Made by a program: the position numbers and the translations under genes. From a virus, in the IMG/VR virus record IMGVR_UViG_3300045988_015384, positions 1-5,954 of that record: a stretch of 5,954 nucleotides of DNA, one strand, 5' to 3'. The notes below the pieces were generated by a model. That model ran no database searches. It was given only the letters and a program-made list of their open reading frames with translations, and was not told where the DNA came from. Of the stretch, positions 1,989 to 5,954 are shown in pieces (position 1 is the first letter of the stretch; every line of letters begins with the position of its first letter).

Positions 1989-2397
1989 TCTTCATGTTTC
2001 CTTCCTTCGGTGTTTCCTTCGGTGTTTCCTTCGGTGTTTCCTTCGGTGTTTCCTTCTGGATTTCTTGCAGTGCCAGCGCGTTTGCCTGTGCTGTTGCGAT
2101 CATGCGGTGGTATTCGTGGATGTTCTGCGGCCATTCCGTAACGTCTACCTCTGTGCCGTCCAACGCTCCCTGTGAAAGGCTCTGCATAAACTGCGGGTCA
2201 AACGACGCTTTGCGGACAATGTTTTTAATATCGCATTCATCCGCATAGCTTTCGATTTCGCCCTGGATGTCGATGCTTTCAGTTTCCTGCAGATACTCTT
2301 TGCCCTCTTTGTCCTTTGCCCAGATATATTGCTTGCGCTGTTTTTCGCCTGATTCAGAAAAGAAGGGCTTTCGCCCTTCTTCATACCTCTTATTCAT
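1975..2397 (-). CDS. VP3: Internal scaffolding protein VP3, 140 aa from ATG 2397, with a C-terminal (KETP)4 repeat.
   Basis: ATG 2397-2395 is preceded by GGGAGGG 8 nt upstream and overlaps the stop of the upstream gene (ATGAATAA). The ADECDIKNIVRKAS and DVTEWPQNIHEY segments resemble the ECDIN.I and D.TE.P motifs I recall for gokushovirus VP3. The longer track ORF (to 2457) starts at TTG with only a weak GGCAGAG upstream. Confidence 0.75.
   Translation of the reverse strand: MNKRYEEGRKPFFSESGEKQRKQYIWAKDKEGKEYLQETESIDIQGEIESYADECDIKNIVRKASFDPQFMQSLSQGALDGTEVDVTEWPQNIHEYHRMIATAQANALALQEIQKETPKETPKETPKETPKEGNMKNEQE
1996..2056. repeat. Tandem repeat: four exact 12-nt units (ccttcggtgttt at 2004-2015, 2016-2027, 2028-2039, 2040-2051) plus partial flanking copies.
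   Basis: Read directly from the sequence. On the coding strand each unit is AAACACCGAAGG, coding KETP in the VP3 frame. Confidence 0.95.
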
Positions 2398-2645: not shown

Positions 2646-2768
2646 TTAGAGCCGAATCCCGCCGCGCATTGGCTTCTGGCTCAGGTTGATACTTTTCGTT
2701 TTTCGCGCGGTCACGTTAAACATGCGCTTGTCTTTTGCGCCGCGCATGACTTTACGATGTCGTGCCAT
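2646..2768 (-). CDS. Small basic DNA-binding/packaging protein (phiX174 J-like, gokushovirus ORF8/VP8-like), 40 aa. Absent from the supplied ORF track.
   Basis: Hand translation from ATG 2768-2766 gives MARHRKVMRGAKDKRMFNVTARKTKSINLSQKPMRGGIRL, with stop TAA 2648-2646. 13 of 40 residues are K/R. GGAGAGGA lies 7 nt upstream. The C-terminal P.RGG.R(L/F) ending resembles SpV4 ORF8 as I recall it. Confidence 0.7.
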   Translation of the reverse strand: MARHRKVMRGAKDKRMFNVTARKTKSINLSQKPMRGGIRL

Positions 2769-2979
2769 TGTAGAATCCTCTCCTTATCAGCTCCAACTCG
2801 ATGGCGTTTGCAAAGCTTTTGCATTGCCAGATTTCATCAATCATCTTTTTTGCGGCTTCTATGTCGCTTATTTTTCGTAGCAGCTTGTAATCGCTCTCGA
2901 TCTCTTTGTATTTTTTTTCAAGTAGTTCGGTTAGGTCTTTTTCGGTCTGGTCTCTGACGTTCCATGATTTTGCAATCAT
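2752..2979 (-). CDS. Hypothetical protein, 75 aa, charged and predicted helical/coiled-coil. No recognisable family.
   Basis: ATG 2979-2977 with AAGGAG 9 nt upstream. It is packed 7 nt after the orf38 stop and overlaps the J-like gene start by 17 nt, which fits a translated operon member. Confidence 0.65.
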   Translation of the reverse strand: MIAKSWNVRDQTEKDLTELLEKKYKEIESDYKLLRKISDIEAAKKMIDEIWQCKSFANAIELELIRRGFYNGTTS

Positions 2980-2985
2980 CTTTGT

Positions 2986-3102
2986 TTACTCCTTTTCGTT
3001 CGGCTGGTCGTGTAGGGCGTGATAGATCTCGTCCAACTTTTCCAAAATCTGCATCATAATTTTGATTGCCTGCTTCACGTCCTTAATAGAAATCAGTGCC
3101 AT
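2986..3102 (-). CDS. Hypothetical small protein, 38 aa (MALISIKDVKQAIKIMMQILEKLDEIYHALHDQPNEKE). Absent from the supplied ORF track.
   Basis: ATG 3102-3100 lies 2 nt after the peptidase stop, with AGGGGG 7 nt upstream. Stop is TAA 2988-2986. It exactly fills the gap between two genes. Sequence is an amphipathic helix-like peptide. Confidence 0.5.
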   Translation of the reverse strand: MALISIKDVKQAIKIMMQILEKLDEIYHALHDQPNEKE

Positions 3103-3104
3103 TT

Positions 3105-3497
3105 TTACACCCCCTTTCTGTACTTTCCGTCTCTTGTATCAAAGTGCACCCAGTTGTCGTATACGATGATGCCACAGCTGTTTGGTACGATACTGTTTAG
3201 CACTTTTGCGAGTTCTTTTGGCTTTACGCCGTCTGCTCTGATGTCTGCTGCCATGCCTCTTGTGTGATAACTGTATTTTGCTCCGCCTACTTTTTCATTG
3301 TGACTTATTGTGCGGTATCCGCTTGTAATCGTGATTGGCTTTTTGATTATGTTTCTTGCGATGTTTAGAGTGATTGCTAGATAATCGTCAACGAATACGA
3401 TTGGCGTTCCGTCTTTACATGCAAATTCTTTTACTTTGAAGTGGCTTGTAATGTTTTCATTTCCTTGTGCTTCCATCACATATGCTTTGATTTCCAT
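3105..3497 (-). CDS. Zinc D-Ala-D-Ala carboxypeptidase-fold peptidase (Peptidase_M15_3/M15A-like), candidate endolysin, 130 aa from ATG 3497.
   Basis: The layout FKVKEFACKDG...ITSGYRT...N..VGGA..SYHTRGMAADI...WVHFDTR matches the M15 pattern SGYR, H-x6-D and H.D zinc ligands. ATG 3497-3495 has AAAGGAG 8 nt upstream. The 162-aa track version starts at TTG 3593 inside orf60. Confidence 0.8.
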   Translation of the reverse strand: MEIKAYVMEAQGNENITSHFKVKEFACKDGTPIVFVDDYLAITLNIARNIIKKPITITSGYRTISHNEKVGGAKYSYHTRGMAADIRADGVKPKELAKVLNSIVPNSCGIIVYDNWVHFDTRDGKYRKGV

Positions 3498-3525
3498 GTT
3501 TGCGGCTCCTTTCTTTGCTTTTATT

Positions 3526-3708
3526 TTATGCAAATATTTCTGTTTTGTCAATACGGTAAAGTTCAACAGAATCAATTCCACGTAGTTGTGCAAGTTTGCT
3601 TGCGTAACTTCTTGCCTCTTTTGTCGTCATGCTTTTCAACTCTTTTGTGCTGGTGCAGTCGTCGTGATTTACCACCATGAGAAACTTATAAATTTTCTGT
3701 TCAGCCAT
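3526..3708 (-). CDS. Hypothetical protein, 60 aa, first gene downstream of the promoter. No recognisable family.
   Basis: ATG 3708-3706 with AAGGGGG about 9 nt upstream and the TATAAT box 27 nt upstream. There is no hydrophobic segment. Confidence 0.6.
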   Translation of the reverse strand: MAEQKIYKFLMVVNHDDCTSTKELKSMTTKEARSYASKLAQLRGIDSVELYRIDKTEIFA

Positions 3709-3734: not shown

Positions 3735-3788
3735 ATTATAGCATTTTTTTGGGCAAAAGTCAATGTTTTTTAGCTTTTTTTAGTTTTT
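3735..3788 (-). promoter_or_regulatory. Near-consensus sigma70/sigmaA-type promoter: -35 TTGACT (3763-3758), 17-nt spacer, extended -10 TGCTATAAT (3743-3735), and phased A-tracts upstream that act as an UP-element-like region (3771-3766, 3781-3775, 3788-3784).
   Basis: The minus strand reads CCAAAAACTAAAAAAAGCTAAAAAACATTGACTTTTGCCCAAAAAAATGCTATAATATAATCAAAGAAAGGGGGCCACAAAAATG. The -35 is 5/6, the -10 is 6/6, the TG is at the extended -10 position, and spacing was counted as 17. Confidence 0.75.
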
Positions 3789-3789
3789 G

Positions 3790-3828
3790 GTCTGCGTCCG
3801 GTCGTGGCGACCGGCGAATAGAGCAGAC
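3790..3828. other. GC-rich nested hairpin: outer stem gtctgc/gcagac (3790-3795 / 3823-3828), inner 7-bp stem ccggtcg/cgaccgg (3798-3804 / 3808-3814) with a 3-nt loop.
   Basis: I checked the reverse complements by eye. An alternative partner ccggacgg at 3848-3855 could pair with gcgtccgg at 3795-3802 (7 of 8). Confidence 0.7.
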
Positions 3829-3867
3829 GTAACTTTTCCGTTTGATTCCGGACGGCCTTTATTTTGC

Positions 3868-4031
3868 TTTTCAACATTTTCCACAGACTTTTCAACATTT
3901 TCACATTGTTAAACTTTAGCACAACAAATTGTTTTAACAATTCAACATTTTTTCAACAAGTCTTTCAACGGTTGTTTTTACTGTTTTCTAACGTTCTTAT
4001 GTTCAAAATTATCTGTTTTCAACATTTCCAC
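3868..4031 (+). repeat. Iteron array: TTCAAC cores at 3870, 3891, 3941, 3952, 3964 and 4018. Three long copies read TTTTCAACATTT(T)(C)CAC(A/G) at 3868-3885, 3889-3905 and 4016-4031.
   Basis: Read directly. There are six copies of one hexamer in about 160 nt, with spacings of 21, 50, 11, 12 and 54 nt. TTTTCCACA at 3877-3885 fits the DnaA-box consensus TTWTNCACA. Confidence 0.8.
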
Positions 4032-4070: not shown

Positions 4071-4116
4071 TACGCGTGCGCGTGTGCGCGCGTCTACGCG
4101 TGCGCGTGTGCGCGCG
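4071..4116. repeat. Two exact direct copies of the 22-nt TACGCGTGCGCGTGTGCGCGCG (4071-4092 and 4095-4116) separated by TC. Each copy is a perfect alternating pyrimidine-purine tract.
   Basis: Read directly and checked position by position for Y-R alternation. The region is dense in CpG inside an AT-rich intergenic region and contains ACGCGT and GCGCGC palindromes. Confidence 0.95.
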
Positions 4117-4120
4117 AATA

Positions 4121-4152
4121 AGGCCAGTACCTTACTTGATAGGTACTGGCCT
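4121..4152 (-). other. Perfect 12-bp inverted repeat hairpin (AGGCCAGTACCT / AGGTACTGGCCT) with an 8-nt loop (plus-strand TACTTGAT), 12 nt downstream of the VP4 stop. Candidate terminator and/or replication-origin structure.
   Basis: The reverse complement was checked and is perfect. On the coding strand the stem is followed only by TATT and then a CG tract, so the U-tract is poor for a classical intrinsic terminator. Confidence 0.6.
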
Positions 4153-5184: not shown

Positions 5185-5954
5185 CTTAAATAATCACCCG
5201 GCTTTCTTTGTTGTCCGTAACTTCCTGTTTTGTCTTGCATGGTTACTGCGTTCTTTTTTGCACCACCAAAGTTTTGTGCGGTTATGCCTCCGTGCTCGTT
5301 TTTTCCGGATGTTCTGTTACCTGTGTTTACACCTTCTTCGATTGCATTTCCTGCTTTTTCTCCGATTTCGGATAGTGCTTTTTGCAATCCTAGTGGTGTC
5401 ATGTTTGTACTGCTTAACATCTGGTTCCAGCTTTGTGCGGCGTTGTACCAATCACTTTGTGACCAACTTTCACTGCTGTACGAGTTTGGCACAAATCCGC
5501 TTGCTCTGCTTACTCCCAGCGCGCTTGACGATGGTGCGCCCATGCTTGCGCCTGAAATCGTTCCTGCGCTACCTCCCGGCGTGCTTGCACCGCCGTTCTG
5601 GAATGCCAATATAGGATTAAGGCCTGCTTTTTTCATGTCCTCAACTGCCCTCTGATAGGCTGTATTTGACATGTGTTCTTGCCATTCTCGATTTTTCATG
5701 GCTTCTGTGCTGTTGAAATTCATTGCTGTTGCGTTTTCGATGTGGTTATATACGCCCTGCATGATTGCTCCCAATGTGTTATAGCCCATCTGTTCCAGCA
5801 TTGATTTCTGGTTAAATTGACTTTGTCTCTGTCCTTCTGCGTTCTGATATTGGTATGCTCCTTTTAGATACTGCATTACCTGTTCGTCATTCGTTCCGGA
5901 CTTGCTCATGCTTTGGCTTTGTCCACCGCCTTGCTGTGTACTTCCGCCTTGACT
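5181..5954 (-). CDS. VP2: 3' portion of the VP2 DNA pilot protein gene. The frame is open to the window end, and the true start is ATG 264-262 after circular wrap.
   Basis: The block NREWQEHMSNTAYQRAVEDMKKAGLNPILAF is the conserved microvirus VP2 core. The frame stays open upstream of the internal ATG at 5909 (…SQGGSTQQGGGQSQS-M), which has no SD. Confidence 0.88.
   Translation of the reverse strand, partial: SQGGSTQQGGGQSQSMSKSGTNDEQVMQYLKGAYQYQNAEGQRQSQFNQKSMLEQMGYNTLGAIMQGVYNHIENATAMNFNSTEAMKNREWQEHMSNTAYQRAVEDMKKAGLNPILAFQNGGASTPGGSAGTISGASMGAPSSSALGVSRASGFVPNSYSSESWSQSDWYNAAQSWNQMLSSTNMTPLGLQKALSEIGEKAGNAIEEGVNTGNRTSGKNEHGGITAQNFGGAKKNAVTMQDKTGSYGQQRKPGDYLR
5814..5954. repeat. Terminal direct repeat, right copy (identical to 1-141).
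   Basis: Exact match to 1-141. Confidence 0.95.

Follow-up and report, generated by a model that had tools for sequence, protein, structure and literature searches.

How does a peptidoglycan-cleaving enzyme reach the cell wall when the phage that encodes it has no recognisable holin? The question is raised by a predicted 130-aa zinc peptidase encoded on the minus strand at positions 3105–3497 (ATG at 3497, stop codon included) of a gut microvirus genome, the whole 5,954-nt stretch analysed here being called the window. As a gene, the peptidase is ordinary: its presence in gut microviruses has been known since 2012 and it is common among relatives. The M15_3 peptidases of human-gut Gokushovirinae and Alpavirinae were analysed in detail and described as putative endolysins derived by horizontal gene transfer (Roux et al., 2012; PMC3394797), and the endolysin assignment of microvirus M15 peptidases was repeated later (Kirchberger 2020/2022 and others). 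Moreover, related GenBank records are annotated "peptidase M15" (KX513868, KX513877) or "similar to peptidase" (MG945xxx), the KX513868 protein being 84% identical to that of the window. A sequence-only reading of this DNA had described such genes as sporadically noted in uncultivated microviruses; they had indeed been noted, but "sporadically" understates the record.

The window peptidase shares with those gut peptidases its family, the virus subfamily, the slot between VP4 and VP5/VP3/VP1, nearest cellular homologues of the Faecalibacterium/Clostridia type and the proposed role; there is no substantial difference, and the window adds one more member. No enzymatic or genetic test of lysis or export by a microvirus M15 peptidase was found in the literature searched. 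What is new here is that the absence of a holin was quantified over 83 genomes, that overprinting was tested, that a cassette-like exchange of peptidase alleles was found, and that the adjacent gene orf38 was separated from the peptidase.

Genome organisation around the peptidase gene

The window is the circular genome of a gokushovirus-type gut microvirus in which VP1, VP2, VP3, VP4 and VP5 were all detected by Pfam and PHROG searches. Positions 1–141 repeat 5814–5954, which leaves a genome of 5,813 nt, and this 141-nt terminal duplication, like the circularity, had been missed in the sequence-only reading. Because the genome is circular, the start of the pilot protein VP2 lies at 264 on the minus strand: its true N-terminus is encoded at 142–264 and the gene runs on at 5954–5181 across the junction. 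The PHROG pilot-protein profile matched VP2 with E = 6.8e-96, and the truncated ORF misses the first 64 profile positions.

Four small genes, all on the minus strand, flank the peptidase gene. A 60-aa ORF without a transmembrane (TM) segment, orf60 (3526–3708), is the first gene after a sigma-70-type promoter-like site (3735–3763, minus strand; TTGACT and TATAAT spaced by 17 nt, with an extended −10 TG) that lies 27 nt upstream of it. The site matches the consensus at 11 of 12 positions and is likely the start of an orf60–peptidase–orf38–orf75 transcript; the exact consensus is not kept in most relatives (18/107). Downstream of the peptidase gene, orf38 (2986–3102) encodes a 38-aa acidic amphipathic-helix protein, orf75 (2752–2979) a charged helical protein of 75 aa with neither a TM segment nor a Pfam family, and orf40 (2646–2768) a highly basic 40-aa protein with a net charge of +12 that matched phrog_10695 (E = 3.7e-9). 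By analogy with phiX174 J and chlamydiaphage ORF8, the product of orf40 is probably a DNA-binding or packaging protein; the gene was present in 78/83 related loci, always between orf38/orf75 and VP5.

The block from 2752 to 3708 had been taken as the accessory part of the genome, a description that is not supported. Only orf60 is variable, occurring in 4/83 related loci and in 2/66 loci selected through orf38, and it matched no family in Pfam, PHROGs, NCBIfam or PADLOC. In contrast, orf38 was found in 81/83 related loci with a median identity of 89%, orf75 in 63/83, and the peptidase in all 66 loci retrieved through orf38, so far as these loci show a gene fixed in this gut gokushovirus clade. 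For orf75, 1,486 homologue clusters were obtained; the 120 listed come from contigs no longer than about 7 kb, and among these the protein appears to be found only in microviruses. Scanning the small ORFs and the window with PADLOC, NCBIfam and Rfam gave no informative match.

The gene encodes a putative M15 peptidase with a LAS-type fold

The protein begins MEIKAYVMEAQGNE... and consists of a single Peptidase_M15_3 domain of M15A type. An AAGGAG Shine–Dalgarno sequence (3506–3512, minus strand), read 8 nt upstream of the ATG at 3497, supports the 130-aa start over a TTG at 3593, and the majority of homologue clusters have exactly this length. The extension that would begin at this TTG looks signal-like; nevertheless, its hydrophobic stretch covers only 10 residues, lacks a basic n-region and shows no conservation. 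The N-terminal extensions carried by peptidases of relatives are unrelated among themselves.

Assignment to the M15 zinc peptidases, proposed from the SGYR, H-x6-D and WVHFD motifs, was borne out by profile searches. Pfam Peptidase_M15_3 (PF08291) matched over profile positions 2–108 of 108 with E = 8e-21 and 74.7 bits, far above the gathering cut-off of 23.2, and PHROG 894, annotated "endolysin", matched with E = 2.4e-39. Pfam M15_2 scored 27.2 bits against a cut-off of 27. The equivalog model of the L,D-endopeptidase MepK (YcbK; NF053624) was rejected, with 43.1 bits against a cut-off of 185 and a match confined to the catalytic core. The motifs typical of the family, namely the SxxR arginine, H-x6-D and the C-terminal histidine, are all in place: SGYR occupies residues 59–62, H78-x6-D85 lies within SYHTRGMAAD, and WVHFD occupies residues 116–120. 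R62, H78, D85, H118 and D120 are the putative zinc-binding and catalytic residues. Across 40 homologues with identities down to 40%, R62, H78 and D85 never vary, and at least 90% of the proteins retain H118 and D120. The gene is under purifying selection, with a pN/pS of 0.26.

An AlphaFold model built on a deep alignment reached a pLDDT of 97.4, replacing an earlier model on a shallow alignment (pLDDT 71), and the predicted structure adopts the LAS (lysostaphin / D-Ala-D-Ala peptidase / hedgehog) fold. A Foldseek search with this model returned 1lbu as the top match (E = 5e-5), followed by Ply500, VanXYc, LysECD7, ChiX, LysB4 and hedgehog N-domains; VanY was also among the structural neighbours. 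The model superposed on phage peptidases of BFVD with TM-scores of 0.93–0.96 and an rmsd of 0.6 Å. The best solved match by both profile and fold is thus 1lbu, the zinc D-Ala-D-Ala carboxypeptidase of Streptomyces albus G and the type enzyme of MEROPS M15A, to which the profile alignment gave E = 1e-11 with SGYR and HxxxxxxD aligned. The Streptomyces enzyme is secreted, comprises 213 aa and carries an additional N-terminal peptidoglycan-binding domain, whereas the gokushovirus peptidase has neither a signal peptide nor the additional domain. Since the two proteins are only about 24–27% identical, substrate specificity is not transferable between them. Taken at the level of sequence and model, the protein is a putative peptidoglycan peptidase that may have muralytic activity and a role in lysis.

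Neither a holin nor an export signal was detected

The canonical holin–endolysin cassette is represented in the window by its muralytic enzyme, as judged by the PHROG 894 match and by 47% identity to the endolysin of Faecalibacterium phage FP_Toutatis, the closest homologue in a cultured phage; no holin was found in the window. As had been suggested, the enzyme has neither a Sec signal peptide nor a signal-anchor-release (SAR) domain, with 9 charged residues among the first 30 and an N-terminal KD10 maximum of 0.57, and its neighbours offer no holin candidate, the KD19 maxima of orf60 (0.01), orf38 (0.98) and orf75 (0.42) being far below the TM level. None of the coding-strand ORFs of the window is TM-grade; the KD19 maximum of 1.28 falls inside the peptidase core. 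Likewise, TM-grade ORFs are missing from 79 of 83 related genomes, and only 4/83 contain any ORF with a KD19 of at least 1.6.

Hidden genes were sought as well. The five alternative frames of the peptidase gene, compared with synonymous shuffles, showed no meaningful excess openness and hence no overprinted gene; by this test for the peptidase gene and by an ORF and hydropathy scan for the other genes, no membrane protein of the phiX174 E type was detected. Among 163 ATG/GTG/TTG starts of ORFs of at least 15 aa, no signal-like or TM N-terminus was found except the non-conserved 10-residue stretch, and the only match of a lipobox/spanin search in the window was a spurious hydrophilic ORF of 17 aa.

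Two groups of known systems frame this result. Like phiX174 E and other "amurins", the window peptidase represents a lysis-related function in a very small phage without a holin–endolysin pair. However, E is overprinted, anchored in the membrane and inhibits MraY without being an enzyme, whereas the peptidase is predicted to be a soluble enzyme encoded in its own frame and without a TM segment. LysA/Gp1 of mycobacteriophage Ms6 and ChiX with the holin-like ChiW of Serratia resemble the window in that small ORFs lie on either side of a peptidoglycan hydrolase without a signal peptide, and ChiX is itself a structural neighbour of the peptidase (TM-score 0.52). Those systems include a small helper, whereas the window has neither a co-conserved helper nor a TM protein like ChiW.

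The peptidase probably derives from endolysins of larger phages

More than 1,200 homologue clusters of the peptidase were retrieved, and nearly all of the closest 120 come from contigs no longer than a microvirus genome. Outside microviruses, the nearest homologues are endolysins of Faecalibacterium phages and prophages (42–47% identity), encoded beside holin genes, which indicates that the microvirus kept the enzyme alone. One Faecalibacterium prophage, for example, encodes a 137-aa single-domain homologue without a signal peptide, followed by Phage_holin_4_1 (E = 1.7e-37) and Holin_SPP1 (E = 4e-24). These cassettes and the window thus share a signal-less, single-domain M15_3 enzyme of about 130–137 aa, but the holin directly beside the enzyme has no counterpart in the microvirus. 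Endolysins of E. coli, Klebsiella and Vibrio phages are 40–46% identical to the peptidase, and some of these are annotated next to holins. In addition, relatives at 40–50% identity are modular endolysins or autolysins, with PG_binding_1 in 19/50 and also SH3, GH25, phage lysozyme and amidase domains. Judging from these homologues, the peptidase was acquired horizontally and has its origin among the endolysins of larger phages. A search of 185,579 species genomes revealed no close or integrated copy, and the best cellular matches were 42–46% identical. The sequence comparison lends weak support to the proposed Faecalibacterium/Clostridia host.

Within the clade, the peptidase slot behaves as an exchangeable cassette, in that near-identical genomes carry alleles only 45–62% identical. 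MG945781 matched 68% of the window at about 86% DNA identity, yet only at 45% in the peptidase, and for MZ821031 the identity in the peptidase was 62%. This allele exchange suggests a match between allele and host wall type. MG945219 had been considered as a close relative without a peptidase and was rejected, as the record is partial and the peptidase truncated.

Proposed route to the wall and alternative explanations

We infer that the peptidase is a horizontally acquired enzyme of the endolysin type that remains cytoplasmic and acts on the wall after a separate breach of the membrane, and assign this reading as a whole a probability of roughly 0.6. The operon would run from orf60 through the peptidase as its second gene to orf38, orf75, orf40 and VP5 onward, probably starting at the sigma-70-like intergenic promoter. 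The peptidase would be made as a soluble protein and build up in the cytoplasm until a late membrane breach gives it access to the wall, where it would cut a stem-peptide or cross-link bond and thereby speed or complete lysis and virion release. Only the enzyme half of a holin–endolysin cassette has been kept, which implies that the membrane-breaching step is supplied by something else. Because relatives without the peptidase but with the same gene set must exit too, the breach is most probably the lysis function common to all gokushoviruses.

Two points count against the proposed reading. The existence of peptidase-less relatives shows that gokushoviruses in general can complete their life cycle without the enzyme, and the export step is an assumption.

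Two bolder proposals, taken together, seem unlikely: that the peptidase lyses the host as a single-gene enzyme independent of any holin, for instance by destroying precursors, or that orf38 is a generic lysis or host-takeover factor of gokushoviruses that gives access to the wall. In its specific form, the first would have the cytoplasmic peptidase cleave UDP-MurNAc-pentapeptide or lipid II and starve the wall, so that export is unneeded. The absence of a signal, SAR domain, holin or overprinted TM gene from the window and from 79/83 relatives fits such a mechanism, as does the presence of the vancomycin-resistance M15 peptidases VanXYc and VanY among the structural neighbours, since VanX, VanY and VanXY cleave the D-Ala-D-Ala of cytoplasmic precursors. 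Small phages, moreover, classically lyse by blocking wall synthesis with "protein antibiotics" such as phiX174 E, Qbeta A2 and LysM of phage M. However, its closest homologues are ordinary endolysins with adjacent holin genes, implying that an enzyme of this kind does no harm while confined to the cytoplasm, and the modules that accompany the domain in other family members bind the wall and act on its assembled form. We therefore consider precursor cleavage quite improbable.

The membrane lesion may alternatively come from the pilot protein: surplus VP2 left over from procapsid assembly would insert its Gly/Ala-rich N-terminus into the membrane and permeabilise or depolarise it, so that the peptidase reaches the wall. 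The first 58 residues of VP2 are uncharged, with a KD19 of 1.38, and no other membrane-type segment occurs on the coding strand; the N-termini are alike in two relatives (L003 and L008), and the value reaches 1.60 in a third (L016). The pilot protein H of phiX174 offers a precedent, having a membrane-inserting N-terminus and forming a tube across the envelope. This tube is, however, sized for single-stranded DNA rather than for a folded 15-kDa enzyme, the hydrophobicity of the VP2 segment is below the usual TM level, and no pilot protein is known that acts as a holin. The idea is purely inferential and we regard it as a doubtful one, with little chance of being correct.

A tiny holin may also have been missed, being shorter than 20 aa, starting at a rare codon or lying on the complementary strand. 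In the relative L016, a 55-aa ORF with a single TM segment overlaps the peptidase start in the slot of orf60, and L229 contains a TM-like mini-ORF of 24 aa. The complementary strand holds many hydrophobic ORFs, and one complementary-strand ORF has been described beside a microvirus peptidase (Roux et al., 2012; PMC3394797). Nevertheless, the L016 ORF, for which a search of 5.8 billion proteins yielded no homologue, was rejected as a recurrent microvirus holin; the scan of start codons yielded only the non-conserved stretch; and the complementary-strand ORFs were discarded as holins, as the antisense frames tested are not kept beyond shuffle expectation and hydrophobic ORFs are to be expected on a strand so rich in T (AT skew −0.2 to −0.43). 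An overlooked holin is accordingly a highly unlikely source of the breach.

The remaining candidate is orf38, which the sequence-only reading had proposed as a membrane-disrupting partner of the peptidase. It encodes a real protein under very strong constraint, with a pN/pS of 0.14 and codon-position variabilities of 0.106/0.038/0.318. The gene starts 2 nt past the peptidase stop codon behind a strong AAGGGGG Shine–Dalgarno sequence, the predicted helix is amphipathic (muH 0.64), and orf38 accompanies the peptidase in 81/83 and 66/66 of the loci counted above. Its net charge is −2, however, unlike that of cationic lytic peptides, and orf38 is kept at 67–76% identity in at least four peptidase-less gokushoviruses (L229–L232), where it precedes orf40 and VP5 as it does in the window. 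Among the 31 GenBank records that carry orf38, at least 4 lack the peptidase (5 others lay outside this check), and an orf75-like ORF is also present in peptidase-less genomes. This distribution identifies orf38 as a lineage gene rather than a dedicated peptidase helper. Furthermore, orf38 hardly changes where the adjacent peptidase alleles differ by as much as 55%, and this speaks against a specific protein–protein partnership. That orf38, or else orf60 or orf75, is a dedicated membrane-disrupting or chaperone partner comparable to Gp1 of Ms6 LysA is therefore barely plausible, being largely refuted by the persistence of orf38 and orf75-like ORFs without the peptidase and by the rarity of orf60, which leaves no co-inherited small helper among the genes examined.

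Implications for gokushovirus lysis

A very abundant group of phages of the human and animal gut appears to have fixed an endolysin without a recognisable holin, signal peptide, SAR domain or overprinted membrane protein. The remaining question, the holin-less export of the peptidase, is real and testable and forms part of the long-standing problem of gokushovirus lysis. That near-identical genomes swap their peptidase alleles as cassettes hints, modestly but usefully, at host tuning of the enzyme, and the wall chemotype that the peptidase cuts could help to pin down the uncultured hosts. Working out the route of the peptidase to the wall would also bear on the general mechanism of host lysis by gokushoviruses.

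Family, fold and selection of the peptidase

The 130-aa product encoded at 3497–3105 on the minus strand contains the motifs SGYR, SYHTRGMAAD and WVHFD quoted in the sequence-only reading, and its proposed membership of the M15 family was borne out by a full-profile match to Pfam Peptidase_M15_3 (E = 8e-21; 74.7 bits vs. a cut-off of 23.2). The protein also matched PHROG 894 'endolysin' (E = 2.4e-39), and a 42-homologue profile matched 1lbu, the Streptomyces albus zinc D-Ala-D-Ala carboxypeptidase (E = 1e-11), with SGYR and HxxxxxxD aligned in the profile comparison. The structural model reached a pLDDT of 71 from a shallow alignment, and a pLDDT of 97.4 and a pTM of 0.91 from a deeper one. 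Foldseek assigned it to the LAS/M15 fold, with matches to 1lbu, the Ply500 catalytic domain, VanXYc, LysECD7, ChiX, LysB4 and hedgehog N-domains, and superposition on peptidase domains of gut siphoviruses and myoviruses gave TM scores of 0.93–0.96 and an rmsd of 0.6 Å. Among homologues down to 40% identity, R62, H78 and D85 do not vary at all, and at least 90% keep H118 and D120. Furthermore, pN/pS was 0.26 over 83 genomes, and the gene is under purifying selection. The lack of a signal sequence also stood, the N-terminus being hydrophilic with 9 charged residues among the first 30. An AAGGAG Shine–Dalgarno sequence precedes the ATG at 3497; an upstream in-frame TTG start was rejected, as it adds merely a 10-residue hydrophobic stretch that is absent from relatives.

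Prior reports, origin and allele exchange

Roux et al. (2012; PMC3394797) reported M15_3 peptidase genes in 5 gut Gokushovirinae and 6 Alpavirinae, observed that the gokushovirus copies cluster with Faecalibacterium sequences and that cellular homologues adjoin holins in prophages, and put forward an endolysin role. Peptidases are one of two recurrent accessory gene types in microviruses, and their transfer between families by recombination has been documented (Kirchberger et al., 2022); the same gene was noted in marine and soil microvirus papers. The nearest GenBank genomes (82–86% DNA identity) carry features labelled 'similar to peptidase' or 'peptidase M15', the JGI set already contains the exact window protein, and nr has a 95% identical one, 'peptidase [Microviridae sp.]'. 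More than 1,200 clusters (90% identity) matched the peptidase at E < 1e-5, and the top 120 lay almost all on contigs no larger than a microvirus genome (~6 kb at most, save a few of 9–10 kb). The window peptidase is not new but an ordinary representative of a known type: the reading of an M15 peptidase without export signal or holin is correct, but was already in print.

Relatives outside microviruses were taken from a library clustered at 50% identity. Those just outside the microvirus group (40–50% identity) were often 200–450 aa long and paired M15_3 with PG_binding_1 (19 of 50), PG_binding_3, SH3, GH25, phage lysozyme or amidase, a predicted domain mix that is classic endolysin/autolysin modularity. 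With VanXYc on one side, among the fold matches, and this lytic domain company on the other, it seems unlikely that the peptidase destroys wall precursors in the cytoplasm in the manner of VanX/VanY. The best match from a cultured phage was an endolysin at 47% identity, that of Faecalibacterium phage FP_Toutatis. Endolysins of Pectobacterium, E. coli, Klebsiella, Proteus and Vibrio phages came close behind (40–48%), and with such varied phages scoring similarly, the signal for a host is weak. Within 185,579 species genomes, the best matches came from Faecalibacterium, Lachnospiraceae and other Clostridia (42–46%), and no integrated or near-identical copy of the microvirus peptidase was found. 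The Faecalibacterium prophage homologue is a single-domain, signal-less protein of 137 aa, directly followed by Phage_holin_4_1 (E = 1.7e-37) and Holin_SPP1 (E = 4e-24) genes. Therefore, whereas the prophage has holin genes beside the enzyme, the microvirus has the enzyme half of this standard cassette alone.

MG945781 matched 68% of the window at ~86% DNA identity, and its peptidase, in the same position, was 45% identical. The allele of MZ821031 (86% DNA identity to the window) was 62% identical, and that of KX513868, a more distant genome, 84%. At the sequence level, this mosaic pattern indicates cassette-like allele exchange at a fixed site, in agreement with the recombination between families that Kirchberger et al. 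(2022) describe. It also suggests that selection may retain some peptidase at the slot while alleles swap; we infer that the swapped alleles are possibly matched to the host wall.

Genome organization and non-coding elements

Positions 1–141 of the window are identical to 5814–5954, so the contig represents a circular genome (5,813 nt) and overlaps itself in the assembly. Every real gene is on the minus strand; the genes are given in the order of the coding strand read around the circle. The VP2 pilot protein starts at 264 and continues across the junction to 5954–5181; its true length without the duplication is 298 aa, cut to 242 aa in ORF lists because the gene spans the contig junction. It is followed by the VP4 replication initiator (5184–4165), a 456-nt non-coding region (4164–3709), the small ORF orf60 (3708–3526), the peptidase, the small ORFs orf38 (3102–2986) and orf75 (2979–2752), a basic 40-aa protein (2768–2646), VP5 (2629–2390), the VP3 scaffold (2457–1975) and the VP1 capsid (1988–303; E = 4e-137). 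VP1 to VP5 were all of gokushovirus type by Pfam and PHROGs. In the ORF translations, the C-terminus of VP3 (1994–2080, minus strand) carries a tandem peptide repeat, KETP ×4, which comes from a 12-nt DNA repeat.

In the non-coding region downstream of VP4, a 46-nt GC-rich tract at 4071–4116 is strictly alternating purine-pyrimidine and consists of two 24-nt units (TACGCGTGCGCGTGTGCGCGCG...); from its sequence, it has predicted Z-DNA-forming potential. Alternating runs of at least 24 nt occurred in 29 of 107 related genomes, where the longest run had a median of 21 nt, compared with 12 nt after shuffling. At 4121–4152, the two 12-bp arms of a perfect inverted repeat (AGGCCAGTACCT ... AGGTACTGGCCT) enclose an 8-nt loop. 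This element sits 13 nt beyond the VP4 stop and could act as a terminator, or as a hairpin for the origin or for packaging. Moreover, three exact copies and one near copy of AAAATGTTGAA lie in the intergenic region on the coding strand (3870–3951, and 4018–4028; 0.01 expected by chance), and at least two copies were present in 10 of the 107 genomes. These iteron-like copies fall within a spurious-looking basic ORF of 56 aa (3770–3940). Relatives also show the amino-acid motif 'KFNNV.MLKSLWKMLK', with starts and lengths that differ from one to the next, a sign of conservation at the DNA level.

Search for a holin or export signal

A hydropathy scan reproduced the earlier observation that the neighbouring small ORFs contain no transmembrane-length hydrophobic segment. 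Across the window's coding strand, 19-residue hydropathy peaked at 1.28, within the folded peptidase core. The sole membrane-type segment was the VP2 N-terminus (58 uncharged Gly/Ala-rich residues; 19-residue Kyte–Doolittle mean 1.38), which had escaped notice because its gene runs across the joined contig ends. The pilot protein H of phiX174 has a membrane-inserting end, which this segment resembles; even so, VP2 is an improbable source of the membrane lesion.

No signal-like N-terminus or credible lipobox was found at any ATG, GTG or TTG start in the window. Within the peptidase gene, no alternative frame, sense or antisense, was open beyond synonymous-codon shuffles (differences ≤7 codons). 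Among 2,709 coding-strand ORFs of at least 20 aa from 83 related genomes, just 11, in 4 of the 83, reached the hydropathy threshold of 1.6, and a tiny membrane peptide missed by these scans is doubtful. Hydrophobic ORFs on the opposite strand were many, but fit the strong T excess of that strand and were rejected. In one related genome (L016), a 55-aa ORF at 2775–2942 with one strong transmembrane segment and a charged C-terminus overlaps the peptidase start and sits where the window has orf60. Its sequence looks like that of a holin; no homologue was found among 5.8 billion proteins, and it is therefore uninformative on the clade.

Conservation of orf38 and its neighbours

orf38 starts 2 nt past the peptidase stop, behind an AAGGGGG Shine–Dalgarno sequence, and encodes a 38-aa acidic amphipathic-helix protein (MALISIKDVKQAIKIMMQILEKLDEIYHALHD...) that matched none of the family libraries. 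The ORF was present in 81 of 83 peptidase-bearing loci, with a median identity across these loci of 89% (peptidase, 64%), and its conservation exceeds that of both capsid and peptidase. With a pN/pS of 0.14 and third codon positions 8 times more variable than second positions, orf38 is a real protein.

The proposal that orf38 is a membrane-disrupting partner dedicated to the peptidase was not supported. Although strongly amphipathic (muH 0.64), the protein has a net charge of −2, in contrast to cationic membrane-lytic peptides. The peptidase was present in 66 of 66 further loci retrieved via orf38, all from the same clade. Decisively, four more distant gokushoviruses (KT264799, MG945157, MG945423 and MG945391; VP1 47–54% identical; 5.2–5.4 kb) have no peptidase and yet keep orf38 (67–76% identity) at an unchanged position, immediately before the basic 40-aa gene and VP5; orf38 always lies just upstream of this basic J/ORF8-like gene. 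In addition, it is nearly constant beside peptidase alleles differing by up to 55%. Since peptidase-less gokushoviruses keep it, orf38 is a conserved lineage gene rather than the peptidase's own helper, and a candidate core factor of the lineage. orf60, found in 4 of the 83 loci, is the sole truly variable gene of the block, and a dedicated helper role for either ORF is very unlikely.

orf75 is conserved and microvirus-only, with about 1,500 clusters and no family. In the peptidase-less gokushoviruses (L229–L232), a 68–75-aa ORF (...EEAKTIVEEIYKVKAEMAERGLNQWQSSV), labelled 'VP5' in KT264799, overlaps the beginning of orf38 from the upstream side. Its C-terminal half resembles orf75 of the window (...EAAKKMIDEIWQCKSFANAIELELIRRG...), which suggests that in these genomes orf75 may flank orf38 on the opposite side.

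Proposed mechanism

A cytoplasmic peptidase acting with a separate membrane lesion is the most likely mechanism (probability about 0.6); non-lytic roles of the peptidase take only the residual probability. The peptidase would be expressed from an operon starting at orf60, with a near-consensus promoter at 3763–3735 (TTGACT, 17 nt, TATAAT, extended −10 TG), would build up in the cytoplasm, and would cut wall peptides after a separate function had compromised the membrane. The lesion would be the generic gokushovirus lysis mechanism, with the peptidase as an add-on improving release; this is the simplest reading because relatives that share the core genes but lack the peptidase must escape too. 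The holin-less export of the peptidase is a real but old question, which is now put more precisely.
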